Shown: positions 9,310-63,996, counted from the first letter of the whole stretch. The stretch: 63,996 bases of DNA, filler included, from Basidiobolus ranarum (GCA_040143965.1; 6 parts of 6 records of this genome joined end to end with filler, not necessarily neighbours in it), one strand, 5' to 3'. A program made the numbers and translations. The notes: generated from the sequence alone by a model not told the origin.

Positions 9310-10644
9310 GGGGGATGAAAAGCACCAGATAGTGTGAACTTTATTTAGCTTAAATACTAATATAAACAAAGTGACAATCAAGATATTAATCTTTTAAGAT
9401 ATTGTGACAATACTGGATCATATCCATACTTAACTTGATGACCATTATAATCAAGTTCAGAGGATGTAAATATAGTGTTAAGGGGCAGGGATGGTAAGCA
9501 GAAAGGAAGGTACTCAGTATAAACTAGATGGACAATAGAATAAAAACCTGGAATAATGGGAATCAAGAAAGGAGTCTTAGAGGCAAGGTATTGCTTCCAA
9601 AGATCTAGCTGGAAGTCTATAGTCATAATTTTAGGCTGTTTTGTTTCATGTAGCTGTAAAGCTAACTCAGAATCAAGAGGATCATCTTGTATTAATTTCC
9701 ATAGTGATAGTGCATTTGAAGATGGTGTGGCTAGCCACTTCTTAATCAGTGGATTTCTGCAGTCATTTAGTTGAAGTATAAATCTTGCCCTGCGTAAAAC
9801 TATATCTGACAAGTGCTTCTTCACAGCAATGCCAGTTGAGTGAATTGAAAGTCTAGATATGTTGCATGGTTTGTATGAAGAAGCTGAGTATGATACAAGG
9901 AAATGGTGGAACCAATTGGAATTGTTTTGGCAATGAAAAGCTCCAAGTTATTTTCTGAACAGCATCTCTGAATAGTAGTAGTATCCAGCTGAGGCTGAGA
10001 AGTAGAAACTCTGATATCATCAGCAAACAAAGTAAGCAGGGATCAAGGGGATAGCTGAGGAAAATCACTGAGAAATATCACACAAAGCAGAGGACCTAGC
10101 ACTGGGCCTTGCTCCACACCATTGGGCACTGGGTATAAGCAGGAAGTATATTCAGGATGAAGGATTCTGGCTTTACTGTCAATAAGGAGAGCTCTCACTA
10201 GCATAGTGAAGGACTTGGGAGTCAAAGACTGAAAATTTCTCCATAGCAGATCTCTGTCTACTGAGTCAAAGGCTTTGGTGATATAAAAGAGAATGGCATC
10301 TTGATGATATTGCAAAGCATTGTCATGACTGAGTACCACAGCCATATCCAAGGAGAGCTTAGGGAGGAAGCCAAATTGGCTAGAGTGAAAGCATGAAAGC
10401 CTCTCATGGATGGATTTCACTAAGATGAGCTCAAACATCTTCCTGCAAGTAGGTAGCAAAGAAATAGGCCTATAGGACTTGGTATCACCATGTTTGCCTT
10501 TGTCTTTGTAAAGAGGCAGAACATTTGCTATTTACCACTCCTCAGGAGTATTAAGCTGCAAGCAACACTGCTCAAACAAAGGTGACAAGAAGGAAGCCAT
10601 GGGAACAGGAGCAAGTTTCAGCAGCTCATAGCTGATCTGATCAT
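9310..10644 (-). mobile_element. Non-LTR (LINE-like) retrotransposon, RT and 3' end, frameshifted and cut by the gap (family A)
   Basis: RT motifs YRPISLLPTCRKMFELI, QFGF, ITKAFDSV, GVEQGPVLGPLL and FADDI across frameshifted ORFs. The 3' end (...GCTTTTCATCCCCC at 9310) matches 43583-43994. Confidence 0.9.
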
Positions 10645-10744
10645 NNNNNNNNNNNNNNNNNNNNNNNNNNNNNNNNNNNNNNNNNNNNTTAATTAATTAA
10701 NNNNNNNNNNNNNNNNNNNNNNNNNNNNNNNNNNNNNNNNNNNN
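10645..10744. other. Artificial 100-nt contig spacer (N44-TTAATTAATTAA-N44)
   Basis: Identical spacers at 21383-21482, 32114-32213, 42840-42939 and 53559-53658. Confidence 0.98.
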
Positions 10745-21382: not shown

Positions 21383-21482
21383 NNNNNNNNNNNNNNNNNN
21401 NNNNNNNNNNNNNNNNNNNNNNNNNNTTAATTAATTAANNNNNNNNNNNNNNNNNNNNNNNNNNNNNNNNNNNNNNNNNNNN

Positions 21483-29734: not shown

Positions 29735-30316
29735 TCATTGTAGCTTCTTTATTTCTTCTACCTCTTCGACAATGAGTTCTGTGCACCTCGCTACTATTGC
29801 ACTGCTAAAACCATTCTTAATCATTTTTTTTGCAATATGTACTCTTGTTTTTCTTTCTTCAAGTGCTGTGTTTTCATAGACCTCCTCAAGGCTCATTTTT
29901 TTACAGGCCTTCTCAGGGATCGGTTTTATGCAGGCCTTCTTAGGAATCGGTTTTTTACAGACCTCCTCAAGGCTCATTTTTTTACAGGACTCCTCAAGGT
30001 CCTCCAGCATTTTGCGTTTCCTCGACTGTTGCTCCCATATGACTTTTGCTTTGCTGTGTTTTTGTCTTTCCAACCCAGCTAGCATTGACATATCCATTTC
30101 CCTGCGTTTAGCTTCAAATTCTTCTTTGCTCGATCCTGTTTTCTTCCTGAAATCCTCCTCAAATTCCTCAGGAGTTTGCCTCCCAAGGGAATAGCAAATG
30201 AACATCTCAAAGCCACGGCCAAAGACAAGAAAATCACCTTCCGTCAGATTACAGACCTTCATAACCCGTTCTGGTATAGTGATTTGATTCTTCTTTGTGA
30301 TCTTTGCCGTATACAT
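29735..30316 (-). CDS. Bacterial-type protein: AbrB/MazE/SpoVT DNA-binding domain, 9-aa repeats, Rpn-type C-terminal HTH-like domain
   Basis: The N-terminus AKITKKNQITIPERVMKVCNLTEGDFLVF fits the AbrB consensus (K.t.kGQITIP...r..l.l..GD.l.f). The C-terminus RVHIAKKMIKNGFSSAIVARCTELIVEEVEEIKK fits the Rpn tail (EIAK.ML..G.....I...TGL..EE...L). Intronless. Confidence 0.75.
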   Translation of the reverse strand: MYTAKITKKNQITIPERVMKVCNLTEGDFLVFGRGFEMFICYSLGRQTPEEFEEDFRKKTGSSKEEFEAKRREMDMSMLAGLERQKHSKAKVIWEQQSRKRKMLEDLEESCKKMSLEEVCKKPIPKKACIKPIPEKACKKMSLEEVYENTALEERKTRVHIAKKMIKNGFSSAIVARCTELIVEEVEEIKKLQ

Positions 30317-31387: not shown

Positions 31388-32002
31388 CCCTAACAGAAAT
31401 TTGAGGATTGTTATCATAGGAAAACCATCACACTTTTAATCCATTTGGGATTGGCCATTTACTTACTGTCATAAAATCATCAAGTTGGATTTGATTTTAA
31501 TCAATTTTTTCTGTTTCAGGAGTGAAATTTCAAGATCTTACAAAATAGTTGCACATGATTGGCTACAATCTAGGCAAACTATGGATCAACACATGTGTGA
31601 AGAATGTAACTCAAATTTTACACATATACCACTTGAATGCCAATTTGTCACCTTTAAAGTTCCTAGTTTCTTTGATCCCTAACAAAAATTTGTAGATTGT
31701 TATCATGGGAAAACTATCATAATTTTAATCCATTTGGGATTGACCATTTACTTACCATCATAAAATCATCAAGTTAGATTTGATTTTAATCAATTCTTTC
31801 AGTTTCAGGAGTAAAATTTCAAGATCTTGCAAAATAGTTGTGCATGATTGGCTACAATCTCAGAGAACTGTGAATCAACACATGTGCAAAAAACATAACT
31901 CAAATTTTACACAATCACCACTTTAATGCTAATTTGTCATCTCTGGAATCCCTAGTCTCTTTGATATATTCTCCTGAATATTTTTATAGAGTTCTTCATA
32001 CC
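31388..32002 (+). repeat. Two tandem copies of the CCCTAAC-headed repeat (31388-31676 and 31677-~32002)
   Basis: Both copies start with CCCTAAC and align to 8982-9309; CpG-free. Confidence 0.9.
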
Positions 32003-32213
32003 CAAGGTTTAGCTCATACCCAACACAAGTTTGTATCAATATCTCCATCAAAACCCACCATTGTATTAATGTTGCTGAATCAACATTCTTCCAGCTATCT
32101 GGCAGATACCCTGNNNNNNNNNNNNNNNNNNNNNNNNNNNNNNNNNNNNNNNNNNNNTTAATTAATTAANNNNNNNNNNNNNNNNNNNNNNNNNNNNNNN
32201 NNNNNNNNNNNNN

Positions 32214-34294: not shown

Positions 34295-35566
34295 TCAAGC
34301 CTTGGGTGGGTTGTTATAAGCAAGGATGTTGGGTGTCTCTCCTGGAAGTTTTTGCAACACATTCTTGGTACCTGCTTCAATAAGCTTGTTCTTGAGTTCC
34401 TTGGGTGTGATGGTAGAGTTAGATTCGAAGGAGAGCATGTAAGCAAGAAGTCCACAGATATGAGGACTGGCCATGGAGGTACCAGAGATGGTGTTGGTAG
34501 CTACGTTGGAACCGATCCAGGTGGAGGTAATATCTTTACCAGGGGCGAAAATATCAACGCACTTTCCATGGTTGGAGAACCAGGCTCTCTCATCATCAAT
34601 AGCACTAGCACCAACAGTTACCGCGCTTTCGGCTGAAGCAGGAGAGTAGCTGCAAGCATCACGGTTGTCGTTACCAGCAGCGACGGCAAAGTGAACACCG
34701 CTGGCGACAGCAGAGTTGACGGCCTCATTGAGAGCAATACTCTTTCCACCACCAAGACTCATATTAGCAACACTACCCTTGTGCTTCTTACCAGCACGTT
34801 GAGCCTCGAGAACAGCTTGTTGATGAGCAGTAATAACCCAAGTGACACCTTTGACAACATCAGCCATGGTACCAGAACCATTGGAACGAAGAACCTTGAC
34901 AGCAACAATTTTAGCTGACTTGGCAACACCATAACGTTTACCGGCAACAGTACCAGCGCAATGGGTACCATGACCGTTACCGTCCTTATCTTCATCATTG
35001 TCAGGAATGGTAGCACCCCAAGTAGCTCTACCTTCGAAATCTTCATGATCGACATTGACACCAGTGTCTACAATGTAGGCAGTCACGTCATTACCACCAT
35101 TATTGGCATAGAGATACTTGTTGTAAGTACCGAATGAGAGCGCTTCACGGTGAGAGATTCTGGATAGACCCCATGGAGCATTCTTCTGCAAGTCAGAGAT
35201 ATAGACCATGGAATCAGCTTCGATGTAGGCAACATCATCCATCTCTCTAATACGTTCTACCACTTCGGATTGGAAGCGCCCAGCATAACCTCTGAAACCA
35301 TCAGCATCGTAGATATGCTTAATCTGGTTGACTTCAACATCACTCTGAGAGTTTACGTTAGCAACTTGCAAGAATGAAGTCAACCAAGCTTGGTGATTGA
35401 GCAAAGAGTCACGGGAAGTATCCTTGAGAACAACAATGTAGGAGTTGGGAATGATTTCGGCATCCAAGGAACTAATAATGGGGGCACCAGGTTGCTCAAT
35501 ATAGAAAGCAAAAGTAGATGCAGTAGCATAAAGAGTAGCGAAAATGATGTTGGTCTTCCAGGTCAT
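34295..35566 (-). CDS. PRB1: Vacuolar subtilisin-like serine protease (proteinase B-like, S8A) with I9 propeptide
   Basis: Signal peptide, I9 prodomain, APWGLSRISHR, and catalytic motifs VDTG, HGTHCAG, SGTSMASPH. Confidence 0.93.
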   Translation of the reverse strand: MTWKTNIIFATLYATASTFAFYIEQPGAPIISSLDAEIIPNSYIVVLKDTSRDSLLNHQAWLTSFLQVANVNSQSDVEVNQIKHIYDADGFRGYAGRFQSEVVERIREMDDVAYIEADSMVYISDLQKNAPWGLSRISHREALSFGTYNKYLYANNGGNDVTAYIVDTGVNVDHEDFEGRATWGATIPDNDEDKDGNGHGTHCAGTVAGKRYGVAKSAKIVAVKVLRSNGSGTMADVVKGVTWVITAHQQAVLEAQRAGKKHKGSVANMSLGGGKSIALNEAVNSAVASGVHFAVAAGNDNRDACSYSPASAESAVTVGASAIDDERAWFSNHGKCVDIFAPGKDITSTWIGSNVATNTISGTSMASPHICGLLAYMLSFESNSTITPKELKNKLIEAGTKNVLQKLPGETPNILAYNNPPKA

Positions 35567-37862
35567 TTTGTTAGTTTACTACTGCGAAATTAATAAATAG
35601 AGGCAAGGGGACAAGAGGACGAAACCAAGAGAATATGGTAGAGAATGAGGTGTGATCTGAAAAATCCAGACAGAAATGCGATAGGGTTTTATAGTGGGCA
35701 TTTGGGGGGTAATTGGATGATGGAATTCCACCCCATCTAAGGTCTGTGACTTAGTCATGGGATTTGAATTAATTAGGAGTAGATAGGTATGGTTCCTAAA
35801 TAATAACTGCTGCGAAAACAAGAGTAAGACATTATGAGGATGTATATGATCGCGTGATTTAGGAATATTTAGAGCAAAGCGTAAGCGAGCTCCGAACATG
35901 AAGTACCAAGATAGAATTCACCATTCTCATTAGCTCTGCTATCTGAGGATTGTATTGTCACTGTAGCTTTCATTCAAATATACTGCAGCCAAGTAAAGGA
36001 GAGAATACGTAATTGTATATTCGGATTGCATTTGCTGACCATCCTGAAACCCAATCAGGAAAGACGAGGTGAAGGGAGCAAACCAAGTCACTTAAACCTC
36101 AGGACTCGAGTTACACGAGCCAACTATGAAGTTGATGTTTGCTTACAAGCCTAGCATCAAGTTGCTGAGTAGACGGCACTGTCACTATGGGACCAGCCGA
36201 AGTACTCGAAAGTGCCATAGCAAATACGGATATATCTCAGTGGCATTCTGTAAAACAATTGGTGACATTCAAATTTGTTCCAGGAGGTCTGCAACCCCTG
36301 ATCTATTTCTGTCAGATTATCAACCGAACTGTGGATACAATATATACAACTGTTCGACAATAGCCCCGTTCACAGTCCAAATGCCCATCCCAGTGTCTCA
36401 TTGTGCGAAACAACGAAGTAGGGGGAAGGGAGAGGATGCGATAGTGTCGTATTGTGGATATTACTGACATTAGAATACACAATGCTGGCTAGCTACAAGC
36501 GGAGCAGCCAGGGATTGGATGGTATTCGAATCTTGATACCCAAAGAAAGGTCACATTGATCTCAAACAGAGATATCAGCTGGCCAGCAGGCTACAACAAA
36601 CCCACACCCTTGCAAAGTCAGCGCATTCCTTATTACCATATTCAGATGGACTTCGTGTGGATCAGTATTGCGGGCGCTCCCTATTCATATTTCAATGCAT
36701 TAGGTAACCCATCAGAACACTGAATGGAGGCTTACAATGTGAAGCCACGAAACAGCGCTAATCCCGATAGATACATGTATAGTGTGTATACGTAATTCTC
36801 GCCATTTGTCTTTTAATTAGTGACGTTAGAGGCTGATCACCCTAGTTTTGGGTGGAAGAAAATCATCCAATTCCAGAAACCGCTATTTATTATGCATGAA
36901 TTTCCCATCTGCCACACGCAGTGTTCTCGATTGAGCAAAATTACCCCTTGATGGCCATATAAATCGGCATTACTGAGCAGAATTTGGCTTGGTCTTCGTT
37001 GTTACATTCTTAGAAAGAAGCTAGAGTCATTCTAACTTTCCTTAGTACATGATACTATATATATTTGATGTTACCATGATCTGTCATTTATCACAGACAT
37101 ACTACCGTGACACTACGTATCAGATTTGAGGCGAGATACACTCCCTTCAGAGTCAGATTTGTACACTTTTATGCTTGTCGTTAATTCAACGCTCTGAGCA
37201 ACTGGTATCATGACAGTTAGTTTCTCTGCAGTTTTGCTAAAGCCCTACTGTAGATTACCGTCGCACATTCGAGAAAAGGCCTATTTGATCTTGCAGAGAG
37301 ATCTTTCCAACAATCTGAAATTTATGCACCACTTGATATGCCTAATTTTGGCGATTTTAATCCGAATTGCGAAAATCGGAGTTTATTTCTCCAATCGGCA
37401 TGGAGACACCGCATTGTGCATAATACATATTATGGACTTCTTTGTGTCGGACTCTAATGAGTTAATCTAGAAAAGTGGAACGCATAAATCTCGCTTTTAC
37501 GAATAAATTGTATGCAATCGTACCTCTTACAGAGTGTTAACAACAAAGCGTCTGAACGGTTCAATAGAAGGTGTACGATAACGCAAAAAACAAGTAGCAA
37601 TACCTGTTCTTATTGGATGTTGCCAAGTCAGCAATAAACCAAGGCATAACTCGGAACATGCAGAAATTTTACTAATTGCTTATTGGCATTGTCAGTCTGT
37701 ACTATGCCGCCGTATTTGTAAACCTTCATGCTGATTTCCATAAAGTGACTATGACATCCGCCATTCGTATGACGCAAGAACTGTAACTGGATGCTTGTGA
37801 AATACAAAGTTGGATCTGATTATCTGACTCTATTGAAAGTATTAATAGGATTTGTTGTTTGA

Positions 37863-38196
37863 GCTTCCGAGCTGATTTACAAAAATCTCAAAAAGCGTGA
37901 AAAACAAGGGGAACTATTACTACTGGACCTTGATGAGTTCAGGACATTGTCCGTAGGTATCTTTGCGAATTTTATGTATCTTTAAGCATCTTAATTTTTC
38001 TTTTAATTAGGTTTGCTGTGAATGCCATCAAAGAAATTTAAGATACCATAGAGTCCAAGAACGTACCTTTTACAATATATTCTGGAATCGAGACGTGCTT
38101 GCAGCTAAAAATATGATGTTCATTTCAACCCAACTTTAGTCCGGTAATGAACGACCCGATATCTTCTCTCGTCCAACAGGACAACGCGCCATATAG
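37863..38196 (+). pseudogene. Fanzor (eukaryotic TnpB-like RuvC nuclease) 3' fragment with an intron
   Basis: Translation: ASELIYKNLKKREKQGELLLLDLDEFRTLS|intron 37953-38010|VCCECHQRNL...NIFWNRDVLAAKNMMFISTQL*SGNERPDIFSRP. This gives RuvC-II (DE), CxxC and RuvC-III (WNRD..AAKN). In-frame TAG at 38137. Confidence 0.85.
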
Positions 38197-38385
38197 AACG
38201 TGGTTGTTCCTCGCTCTAGCGAGCGAATTTAAAGATTCTTACAGGTAAAGAACATCACTTTGGCCATTGATATCTTGTCTAAACTAATATTTTTTTGTCT
38301 CAATTTTATTTTCATTTCGTCTAAAAATTAATTTTGATTCGTCTAAAAAAAGTACTGACACGTCTAATTTTAGAGTAAAATCCTG
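38197..38385 (+). mobile_element. Putative right end of the Fanzor-carrying transposon, including the candidate omegaRNA region
   Basis: Hairpin CTCGC-TCTA-GCGAG (38210-38223). GTCTAA-like repeats at 38277, 38297, 38319, 38341 and 38362. Terminus ...AAAATCCTG followed by TA. Confidence 0.6.
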
Positions 38386-40022
38386 TAATAGGATTTGTGA
38401 CAGTGAAAGCATGTCACGTACATGTATCTAATAATAAATTATAGTTTGTTATTAGATGTTCTACAATTAACAAATTAAGCACACTTCTAATACCAGTATT
38501 GTCACCTGCATACTGAACGCTCTTTACGAATGACGTCTGTGCTGCCATTTTTGTTAAAGCGAGAGAAAGATCGAAGACAACACTCACAATTCCTTTGGTC
38601 ATGCAGCGCTGATGGTACGCGAGTGAACGGTGAACTCACAAGATGTGAAATAAATTTGGTTATTTTTCTGGTGTATTCATGCTGAATTTCATAAAAATAT
38701 ACACTTCATTGAGCAGATTTTCTCCAGTTTTTGTTCGCTTAACATGTGAGCTAGATGTTCTTTCTTGCTATACAGTTTGGAAACTTATTTGCCGGTGCTG
38801 AGGTTGAACATGTTCAAAATGAAACAACAGCAGGGATTCCTAAGCTCGAATTTTAAAGCTAGGTCATACCACCTGATGATGGTTTCCGTAGAAGTGCTAT
38901 ACTTTCTAGAACGGAGTAGGGGATATCTATCTAAGCAACCTCATTTCTAGCTCATGCTGGGGTAGCGGCTCCGAAGTCACTTCCAGAAATATAGGGAATT
39001 CGGTGGTTCTCCTTCTGAGAAGATCTAATTATTTTAGACGTTTGAAGCTTAACCAGAAAAGGTTGTGATTTCTTGGAGCAAGAGGAAAGGAATTGAGGGG
39101 CATTTACAACCCATATATACCTGAATAAAGAAATCGGAGCTATCTTGGCACGTAAGAATAACTTTATTGATCCACTGGTGTTGGTTCTTGGAATAAATCA
39201 ATAGGTCCGATTTACAGACAAACAAAGAGGTCAATGACTGGCATTGAAGTCGGGTGTGCTACCGCTATCAGACTTTCCAAACTTGGTAACTTCACCTCCA
39301 GACCAACTTTAAAAGCCTTGATCTGAGGCGCAATTTCTGAGTCAGACTCAATCGCGACTAGAATGGGTTCTCTCGAAGCCTACAAGATCTCAATATCTAG
39401 GACTGATTTAAGTGGCTTTCTGTGATGTTAGCCTCACTTCTATCCCATATTGTGCTATTCTCCACTCAAAGCACTAGAAAGCTTGTAGGATATCTCAGAG
39501 GTGGGCTGATTTCCCCAATTTCAGATGATCAATTTAAAGTCTAGTGAGTTTTTAGTGATTCAAAGCAGATAATGGATCCAGAACCACGATAGAAGCCACA
39601 TTAAACTTCACTCACAGCATAGTTGGTGGATTTTGCCTTGATTTGTTTGCCAGATTCTATATCATTAGCACGGCAAAGTCTCTTCATTGAGTGAAATTCT
39701 CCAGATGTCAAGCTTTAATAAGTTTTATGAGCTCAATTGCAGATGATTATTTCGCATTTGACAGATCACCGTCCAATGGAAGAGAGGTTGTACTCAGATA
39801 TTGAGGTGGTGGGGATTTATCTATAAGCTTACTACTGCCATGGACGTAGTAACAAACAAGATAATATCCATGTTATACATTACAGAAAACATGGTTTTAT
39901 AACTTGAAAAGAGAGAATACATTGAGGTAATAGGGTGAAAAGGTGCAAAGTAAAGCAATTCTGAGACTCATATATGAACGTGGATGTTTGTTAAACATGG
40001 TTTGCTTTGAAAATGAGATTAT

Positions 40023-40991
<969 letters not shown>

Positions 40992-42839: not shown

Positions 42840-42939
42840 NNNNNNNNNNNNNNNNNNNNNNNNNNNNNNNNNNNNNNNNNNNNTTAATTAATTAANNNNN
42901 NNNNNNNNNNNNNNNNNNNNNNNNNNNNNNNNNNNNNNN

Positions 42940-53558: not shown

Positions 53559-53658
53559 NNNNNNNNNNNNNNNNNNNNNNNNNNNNNNNNNNNNNNNNNN
53601 NNTTAATTAATTAANNNNNNNNNNNNNNNNNNNNNNNNNNNNNNNNNNNNNNNNNNNN

Positions 53659-63317: not shown

Positions 63318-63747
63318 TGTTAAAGTATTTTGGGAGCCAGTTGGAAGTGGTTTGGAGAATTAGAGAAATTGGTGATTTTCACTAGTTGAGTCAATAAACT
63401 TACTCTCTATATTCTCTCTAATAAAATGATGTCCAATATCTATATGTTTGCTTCTAGTATGTAATGTGGGATTTCTAGCTAATTTGATTATCTTGGAATA
63501 TTGTAGTTGGTGAATTTGGAGAATAGCCTAAATCTGTTAAGAATTTTCTTAACCATATTGCTTCTTTTGTTGCTTCACAAGCAGCCATGTATTCTGCTTC
63601 TGTTGTTGAAAGTGCTATGGTAGGTTGTTTCCTTGAATTCCAAGAAATAGCTCCATTACAGCAAAGAAATAAGTATCCTGTTGTAGATGTCCTGTCTTCA
63701 ATATCTCTTCCCCAATTTGCATCTGAATATCCCATCAGATCAAAGTT
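63318..63747 (-). mobile_element. Ty1/Copia retrotransposon remnant: RNase H plus partial 3' LTR (family 2)
   Basis: GYSDANWGRD..DRTSTTGY...AISWNSRKQPTIALSTTEAEYMA...FQDNQ. The LTR end ...ACTTTAACA lies at 63318 on the minus strand. Confidence 0.9.
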
Positions 63748-63996
63748 TGTTGGATAATTAATCTTTATTCAACATCATAGTTAACTTTAGTTATGATACC
63801 TATATCAGAAACAGAAAGCAACGTATCTATAGCCCCTATATTCTAAATAGGAATATCTCTATATCTATATAACAAGTATGTCTTCTTACCCCCACTTATC
63901 TATTATATCTTATTACACAAAACTCCTGAATATCTCAAACAATTGATTTACTTTTCTACTATATAAGTCACCATATACTCTTAAGAATAAACTAAC
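63748..63996 (-). repeat. LTR, family 1, inserted into the Copia coding sequence
   Basis: Reverse complement of about 10765-11013. Its ...CCAACA end abuts the Copia pol frame just before GYSDA. Confidence 0.85.

Follow-up and report, generated by a model that had tools for sequence, protein, structure and literature searches.

A truncated Fanzor1 gene between two 13-bp repeats

We analyzed a stretch of DNA of 63,996 nucleotides, filler included, from Basidiobolus ranarum (GCA_040143965.1), referred to here as the window and numbered from its first letter. Within a ~4.4-kb gap between a subtilase gene and a Ras-family GTPase gene lies a 530-bp, 5'-truncated transposable element that holds the remnant of a Fanzor1 gene, a TnpB-like RuvC nuclease gene (PF07282), and that is bracketed by two copies of the 13-mer TAATAGGATTTGT on the + strand (Table 1). 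An earlier note made from the same sequence, called here the original prediction, had interpreted this arrangement as a possible scar of guided cleavage by Fanzor followed by aborted homing.

A word-based search of 5.8 billion proteins yielded three candidate relatives of the fragment, all three from Rhizopus microsporus and all PF07282 (E 1.6e-12 to 1.3e-9), with identities of 71 to 74%; the last-exon remnant (38011-38196) is 70 to 76% identical to these three proteins. When one of them, P0002, was compared with the window by tblastn, two segments were aligned with 52/68 and 25/36 identities. Two full-length relatives, P0005 (789 aa) and P0006 (590 aa, from Benjaminiella poitrasii), were those that passed among 758 candidates; they are 52 to 67% identical to the fragment over 20 to 46 residues, and P0005 matches the solved structure of SpuFz1 (8gkh) with an E value of 5e-9. 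Searching with P0002 to P0006 by tblastn revealed no second Fanzor anywhere in the window. The two exon remnants lie in frames +3 and +1, and we take the 58 nt between them to be a retained intron because only their removal joins these frames into the ...TSS/VC... of the relatives (the stroke marks the exon junction). Both DEFRTLS/VC and WNRD were found, which places the RuvC-II Glu six residues ahead of the zinc finger and supplies the RuvC-III RD; the rule for the position of this Glu relative to the zinc finger is that given in excerpts of a 2026 review (PMC13565253).

The gene is decayed. An in-frame TGA at 37860-37862, just ahead of the penultimate-exon remnant, stands where the relatives have Gly or Glu, and an in-frame TAG at 38137-38139 stands where they carry Trp. 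The last-exon remnant has kept the first CxxC motif together with WNRD (RuvC-III), while the second CxxC has been lost through an 8-residue deletion. Because the alignment to P0005 begins only at about residue 676 of 789, RuvC-I, including its Asp, and the N-terminal WED and REC domains are absent, and tblastn detected no Fanzor similarity in any frame upstream of the fragment. A 42-aa piece of the remnant, searched alone, gave no Pfam match at E 0.001. This is a dead Fanzor1 gene, truncated at the 5' end, of which the last ~110 codons survive with an intron in place. At 38174-38200, frame +1 matches the C terminus of P0002 (SRPTGQRA) and frame +2 matches P0003 (QQDNAPYRT versus QQDNAPHRT). 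The annotated proteins P0002 and P0003 are thus frameshifted relative to each other, and a decayed copy must underlie one or both of these R. microsporus gene models.

Both boundaries of the element were set independently of the 13-mer repeat. On the right, we compared the sequence with ROr-3, a Fanzor1 element of Rhizopus oryzae that is 2862 bp long, is present in 16 copies, has 133-bp inverted repeats and a TA duplication, and encodes a 720-aa Fanzor in two exons (Bao & Jurka 2013, PMC3627910). Compared by eye, the bases at 38361-38385 agree with the final 25 of ROr-3 at all but four positions (21 of 25) and share its CTG end. The motif GTCT[AC]A occurs five times, at 38277, 38297, 38319, 38341, and 38362, with an ROr-3-like spacing of 20 to 22 bp, and the distances of these motifs from the terminus (~23, 44, 66, 88, and 108 nt) match those of ROr-3, again by eye; this is the sole such cluster in the window on either strand. 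We therefore place the end of the element at 38385; a canonical TA follows immediately.

On the left, protein similarity is certain from 37857 (GTT-TGA-GCT), one base past the left 13-mer, and none was found left of 37842 in any frame, so the junction falls between 37842 and 37857. The codons at 37842-37856 read L-I-G-F-V, where the relatives read [LF]-R-G-[RL]-[RI], with matches at the conserved Gly and Leu. BLOSUM62 scores of this similarity, compared with those of 20000 15-mers drawn at random from the window, gave p = 0.047, 0.084, 0.112, and 0.112 with four relatives; with P0004, whose sequence has an indel, p was 0.76, and the best-of-five p was 0.14. The similarity of the left 13-mer to the Fanzor reading frame is weak and non-significant (p 0.05-0.14). 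A left inverted repeat was not found in the window by blastn, by a search with the 25-nt terminus at up to 3 mismatches, or by a search for motif clusters on both strands. The idea that the flanks are relics of a related inverted repeat or of a tandem junction was dropped after four local alignments gave p values of 0.82, 0.75, 0.87, and 0.52 (500 shuffles each). The locus is what remains, as a dead solo right end, of a non-autonomous terminal-inverted-repeat transposon of the ROr-3 (Tc1/mariner-like) type, which inserts at TA.

The two copies of the 13-mer are its only occurrences in the window; no further match appears when one mismatch is allowed, and neither copy can be extended by even one base on either side. 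The site around the left copy reads TAT-TA-ATA and looks intact, with no excision footprint. Palindromic AT-rich TA sites are preferred by Tc1/mariner elements. The duplication comprises 13 bp, that is, TA plus 11 nt, and not the 2-bp TA duplication of ROr-3-type elements, although a TA does follow the terminus. The hexamer TGAAAG is found at 37833-37838, four bases (TATT) ahead of the left 13-mer, and again at 38404-38409, five bases past the right copy; in a reconstructed vacant site, it forms a 6-nt direct repeat ~27 bp apart.

Chance expectations were obtained from 100 second-order Markov simulations. The window contains four loci with exact direct repeats of at least 13 nt within 1 kb, against 1.4 expected, and 79 of the 100 simulated windows had at least one such repeat. 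Among the four are the 30-nt repeat at 29878 and the 289-bp-spaced repeat at about 31.4-31.9 kb that are described below. A 13-mer repeat alone is therefore unremarkable, given that ~1.4 are expected per window by chance. For a repeat that abuts both boundaries, the expectation falls to ~4e-7 (1.4 x 20 / 6.4e7, scaled from the simulations for one fixed start, 38386, and ~20 permitted positions of the left copy), which makes this duplication too well placed for chance. The duplication is real, and it is anchored on TA, the canonical target dinucleotide of the element.

Much of what the original prediction had described at this locus was borne out: the exact pair of 13-mers, now seen to have no third match even at one mismatch, the truncated Fanzor with its retained intron, now supported by the tblastn frames, and the end of the element at 38385, now supported by the ROr-3 terminus. 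It had named, as grounds for its own rejection, a 13-mer internal to the element consensus. As far as this could be tested, the 13-mer is not internal: the right copy begins only past the ROr-3-type terminus, and the resemblance of the left copy to the relatives did not reach significance.

Table 1 Features of the locus and its neighbors, in window coordinates
Feature	Position	Strand	Basis or remark
Subtilase gene	34298-35575		
8-bp palindrome TATTAATA centered on TA (37843-37844)	37840..37847		Sequence; resembles a vacant, footprint-free TA target site
Left 13-mer copy, TAATAGGATTTGT, TA + 11 nt of target	37843..37855	+	One base separates the copy from the first element-homologous codon, GTT (37857)
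Decayed, 5'-truncated ROr-3-like Fanzor1 element (solo right end), 530 bp	37856..38385	+	tblastn of P0002-P0006; no left inverted repeat in the window
Penultimate Fanzor exon remnant, ASELIYKNLKKREKQGELLLLDLDEFRTLS (frame +3), with RuvC-II Glu	37863..37952	+	Translation, tblastn
Retained 58-nt intron, GTAGGT...TTAG (GT..AG)	37953..38010	+	tblastn segments in frames +3 and +1
Last Fanzor exon remnant (frame +1), VCCECHQRNL...FWNRDVLAAKNMMFISTQL(stop)SGNERPDIFSRPTGQRAI(stop)	38011..38196	+	Translation, tblastn
Right terminal inverted repeat, ~130 bp, ending ...TAAAATCCTG	38255..38385	+	Motifs and ROr-3 match; inner limit approximate
Hairpin-capable stretch AAATCCT(G)-loop-(T)AGGATTT across terminus and flank	38378..38396	+	8-bp stem in the minimum-energy fold
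Right 13-mer copy	38386..38398	+	Begins with the canonical TA immediately past the element terminus
Ras-family GTPase gene	40026-40406		

Comparison with known Fanzor elements

ROr-3 and the element described here have in common the terminal 25 nt (21/25), the CTG end, a ~130-bp inverted repeat in which (T/G)AGAC motifs recur at intervals of ~22 bp, insertion at TA, an intron-containing Fanzor gene directed towards the right end, and the lack of a transposase of their own. They differ in that the Fanzor of our locus belongs to another subfamily, nearest to the R. microsporus fragments (70-76%), P0005, and P0006, and in that the locus keeps only the last 530 bp and its duplication measures 13 bp, against 2 bp for ROr-3. 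Among elements of the Mucorales, MCi-2 of Mucor circinelloides is likewise a Fanzor1 element; its duplications of 11 to 12 bp share an AT-rich motif on their 5' side (ATAATT...), and its copies are conserved in their 3' regions and fuzzy at their 5' ends. In contrast to our element, it belongs to an unclassified family without inverted repeats, is 9 to 10 kb long, encodes a 1375-aa Fanzor, and has another terminus (PMC3627910).

The closest parallel to the pattern itself comes from another class of transposon. According to excerpts of Bao & Jurka (PMC3627910), CRe-1, CRe-2, and CRe-3 of Chlamydomonas reinhardtii are frequently truncated at the 5' end, and the truncated copies carry duplications, variable in length from 7 to 19 bp, whose first base directly follows the canonical TTTT target. 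Where the 5' end is complete, there is no duplication, and Fanzor-less Helitron relatives almost never do (1/200). Our locus fits this pattern as excerpted, in that a 5' truncation is accompanied by a 13-bp duplication whose left copy begins at the target motif, TA. However, the CRe elements are Helitron2-type rolling-circle (HUH) elements with a TTTT target, whereas our locus has an inverted-repeat terminus and a TA target; the CRe pattern covers hundreds of loci against one here; and the published reading, in the same excerpts, is one-ended transposition, not aborted homing. Excerpts of a later study tentatively tie non-canonical Chlamydomonas duplications to Fanzor cleavage (Craig 2023, PMC10288648).

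The homing of TnpB and IscB in IS200/IS605 and IS607 elements offers a likeness in mechanism: the guide corresponds to the flank past the right end, the site preceding the left end serves as the target-adjacent motif (TAM), and cleavage of the vacant site is followed by repair templated on the occupied copy. In excerpts of the 2026 review, however, this is shown in bacteria for scarless excisers and is a model only for Fanzor and for DDE/TA elements (PMC13565253). The ghost and partial Spu-1 copies of Spizellomyces punctatus resemble our locus as TA-inserting Fanzor1 elements whose protein-less or partial copies keep the right end and the omegaRNA region (Saito 2023, PMC10432273), but the ghost loci keep both inverted repeats, and by eye one "partial fz end" locus in the supplementary GenBank files of that study keeps its left end.

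Origin of the duplication

We infer, with a probability of roughly 0.4, that the locus arose by aborted templated repair from an occupied copy, which is the most likely of the origins considered. A complete element would have sat at the TA at 37843-37844 on the sister chromatid or the homologue, and the vacant copy of the site would have been broken 11 to 13 bp or more 3' of that TA. The right-hand end would then have invaded the occupied copy via flank homology and been extended leftward, with the 11 nt and the TA copied first and then, beginning with the right end, ~530 bp of the element. When synthesis halted, TA plus 11 nt would still have been present on the left-hand end, and the new strand would have been joined to that end, probably through microhomology of a few bases. 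Copying of this kind, right end first and from an occupied allele, would reproduce the structure of the locus exactly. Finished repair would restore the element with no extra duplication; aborted repair would leave an intact vacant-site sequence, a truncated element, a canonical right junction, and a repeated target, and it is this outcome that fits the locus. Abortive gap repair is the classical origin of deleted P, Tc1, and mariner copies. We prefer templated repair to aberrant integration because it involves no unexplained 13-bp stagger, follows a classical route to deleted elements, and predicts the correlation between duplication and truncation among CRe-1, CRe-2, and CRe-3.

What broke the vacant site is a separate matter. 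The original prediction can be sharpened to the reading that a Fanzor-omegaRNA complex, guided by the right flank, cut the vacant site in vivo and that restorative homing was then aborted, with the pair of 13-mers as its fossil; this we hold to be doubtful. Fanzor would be the most economical breaking agent, since it is expected to cut the vacant site within a few bases of the position of the break, and random breaks are unlikely to fall as near as 13 bp to the insertion point. In excerpts of the 2026 review, excised elements are restored by TnpB or IscB cutting the vacant site, and the evidence for homing listed there concerns bacterial TnpB and IscB only, nuclease activity alone being shown for Fanzor (PMC13565253); Saito 2023 calls the biological role of Fanzor unknown (PMC10432273). 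The geometry of the original account, with its vacant left site, canonical right junction, and ~530 bp of copied element, has been retained in our own reading, whereas a Fanzor cut is plausible and no more. Nothing at the locus shows that the nuclease acted, and one locus cannot demonstrate that Fanzor made the break.

Several considerations weigh against aborted repair, in particular after a Fanzor cut. The evidence comes from a single locus. Mucorales are haploid when vegetative, so the occupied and vacant copies can have met only in a zygote or, once an excision had left no footprint, in G2. The distance of the break is also awkward for Fanzor. In the TA-duplicating Spu-1 elements, the TAM, CATA, consists of CA plus the 5' TA, and the guide begins past the 3' TA (Saito 2023, PMC10432273; excerpts of PMC13565253), which the excerpts of the 2026 review count with the scaffold; by eye, CATA stands directly ahead of the left repeat at one Spu-1 locus in the supplementary GenBank files of Saito 2023. 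If TA belonged to the TAM here by analogy with SpuFz1, only 11 nt of target would have been kept. The measured cuts of Fanzor1 enzymes lie at 16/17 and 20/21 for SpuFz1 and at 14-17 for GtFz1 (Saito 2023, PMC10432273), so that with 11 nt retained, trimming of 3 to 10 nt must be assumed. The original prediction had the cut leave the TAM plus ~13 nt of target; the retained length is 13 nt with the TA included, or 11 nt if TA is part of the TAM, against measured cuts at 14-21 nt. The TAM of PpFz1 from Parasitella, another Mucorales fungus, is ATN.

Features of the right end also weigh against a guided cut. A hairpin across the junction pairs the last bases of the element, AAATCCTG, with the flank, TAGGATTT. 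It is possibly due to chance; in an omegaRNA, the predicted fold would sequester the start of the guide, which would then be partly self-paired with the end of the scaffold. A search of the right end against Rfam for an omegaRNA returned one sub-threshold chance match only (MicC, 25 bits versus a cutoff of 90), and the predicted RNA fold of the right end was no better than that of shuffled sequences (z 0.25). Finally, one "partial ghost" of Spu-1 (Saito 2023, by eye), which is short of ~15 nt on the left, has no duplication in its flanks, an observation on one locus and not a survey.

The same geometry, with the right end on a canonical TA and the truncated end joined 13 bp downstream, would also result from an aberrant one-ended integration or capture, in which a transposase joins to the TA the true right end of an element that has been excised or half cleaved, the element is broken internally, the second target strand breaks 13 bp away, and the gap is filled by host repair. 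This would yield a true, non-canonical 13-bp target-site duplication and would need neither an occupied allele nor a Fanzor cut. It is, in the excerpts cited above, Bao & Jurka's own reading of the analogous CRe-1, CRe-2, and CRe-3 pattern, the 11- to 12-bp duplications and fuzzy 5' ends of the Mucor MCi-2 elements are in line with it, and Mariner transposases of the kind that the family would need in trans exist in Rhizopus (ROr-1/2) (PMC3627910). However, the stagger of Tc1/mariner elements is 2 bp, so the 13-bp offset demands a second break that remains unexplained, and the CRe precedent concerns rolling-circle elements. One-ended integration by a cut-and-paste TA element is not known to us from any in vivo study, though no search aimed at it was made. 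On balance, we consider this origin a serious rival, somewhat less likely than templated repair. We find it much harder to credit a template switch or microhomology-mediated insertion from an ectopic copy, in which the left 13-mer would be partly element, or would pair with it, and a strand would jump into a Fanzor copy, run to the end of the excised linear element, and return. Such a switch could draw on the conserved Gly and Leu in the codons at 37842-37856 and on AGGATTT, which the original prediction had put forward as microhomology for the capture. The codon similarity is non-significant, however (best-of-five p 0.14), and while AGGATTT does match the inverted terminus (AAATCCT, 38378-38384), we reason that its polarity is wrong for pairing the left end with the new strand. 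Moreover, no microhomology explains why the strand should have come back to precisely the TA, 13 bp back from where it had left.

Mere coincidence, namely, the chance presence of the same 13 bases on both sides of a truncated relic, is very improbable. Repeats of this length are common enough in the simulations, and this very 13-mer was matched twice in 2 of 100 shuffles, but the two copies abut independently set boundaries, the right one to the base, and the expectation for that is the ~4e-7 given above. A copy templated by RNA is more improbable yet, whether it were a retrocopy of an unspliced transcript of the type made by long interspersed nuclear elements (LINEs) or the product of reverse transcription primed from a Fanzor-cleaved, guide-paired target strand. 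Target-primed reverse transcription typically produces a 5' truncation and a duplication such as the 13-bp one here, the window contains part of a LINE-like reverse transcriptase (10046-10531; PF00078, E 5e-14), and guide-primed copying would keep an intron and need no poly(A). Against this, neither junction has a poly(A) or A-rich tail, the 58-nt intron has been retained, and the process is without precedent. The particular variant in which the cleaved, guide-paired target strand primed reverse transcription of an intron-containing Fanzor transcript would be a natural analogue of prime editing, and we give it almost no credence.

Wider searches, surroundings, and significance

Using an alignment of the Fanzor subfamily, we obtained 304 pattern matches in metagenomes, of which two were confirmed (L001 and L002) as distant relatives at 26% identity. 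They lie on metagenome contigs of 2.6 to 2.8 kb and are too distant to define the ends of the element family. With the same alignment, none of 126 pattern matches in viral contigs and none of 203 in prokaryote genome contigs was confirmed, and a degenerate pattern of the terminus had no match in either of these two collections.

Elsewhere, the window contains ordinary fungal genes (cytochrome P450, carboxylesterase, ribosomal protein S26e, and a forkhead protein). The LINE-like fragment, on the minus strand, lies beside a masked run of N and indicates that retroelements are present in the genome. At 63478-63768, on the minus strand, an open frame that we take to be copia-type RNase H/integrase-like has no Pfam match at E 0.001. 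Two copies of a ~190-bp stretch lie 289 bp apart at 31434-31913, with seven exact segments of 13 to 20 nt on one diagonal, and constitute an unclassified dispersed or tandem repeat. At 29878-29988, an exact 30-nt direct repeat with 81-bp spacing falls in overlapping open frames with reiterated peptide motifs, as in a coding or low-complexity minisatellite. Ten 44-base runs of N form five pairs ~10.7 kb apart (10645-10744, 21383-21482, 32114-32213, 42840-42939, and 53559-53658) and look like masking, not assembly gaps.

Several parts of this picture are already known: the ROr-3-like family, truncated Fanzor relics, duplication-flanked 5'-truncated Fanzor1 copies of Helitron2 type, and the 11- to 12-bp duplications of MCi-2. 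We found no literature report of such duplications in TA/inverted-repeat Fanzor elements, or of their being read as aborted homing, although paywalled papers and some supplements may hold more. The locus thus extends a signature of rolling-circle Fanzor elements to a TA/inverted-repeat element and carries the puzzle posed in 2013 into a second transposon class. On its own, it is a curiosity and cannot establish Fanzor homing. Were one-ended integration the true origin, the locus would be a rare case of such integration by a cut-and-paste element and of modest interest. If, instead, aborted homing is the true origin, the general mark of Fanzor homing in genomes would be a duplication of about guide length, anchored on the target motif and flanking a 5'-truncated copy. 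Truncated copies, no longer able to excise, would build up, and the 7- to 19-bp duplications of truncated CRe-1, CRe-2, and CRe-3 copies described in 2013 would also be accounted for. Should the lengths of such duplications generally track the position of the cut, RNA-guided homing in eukaryotes would be readable from genomes alone, and TAMs and cut sites could be inferred without biochemistry.

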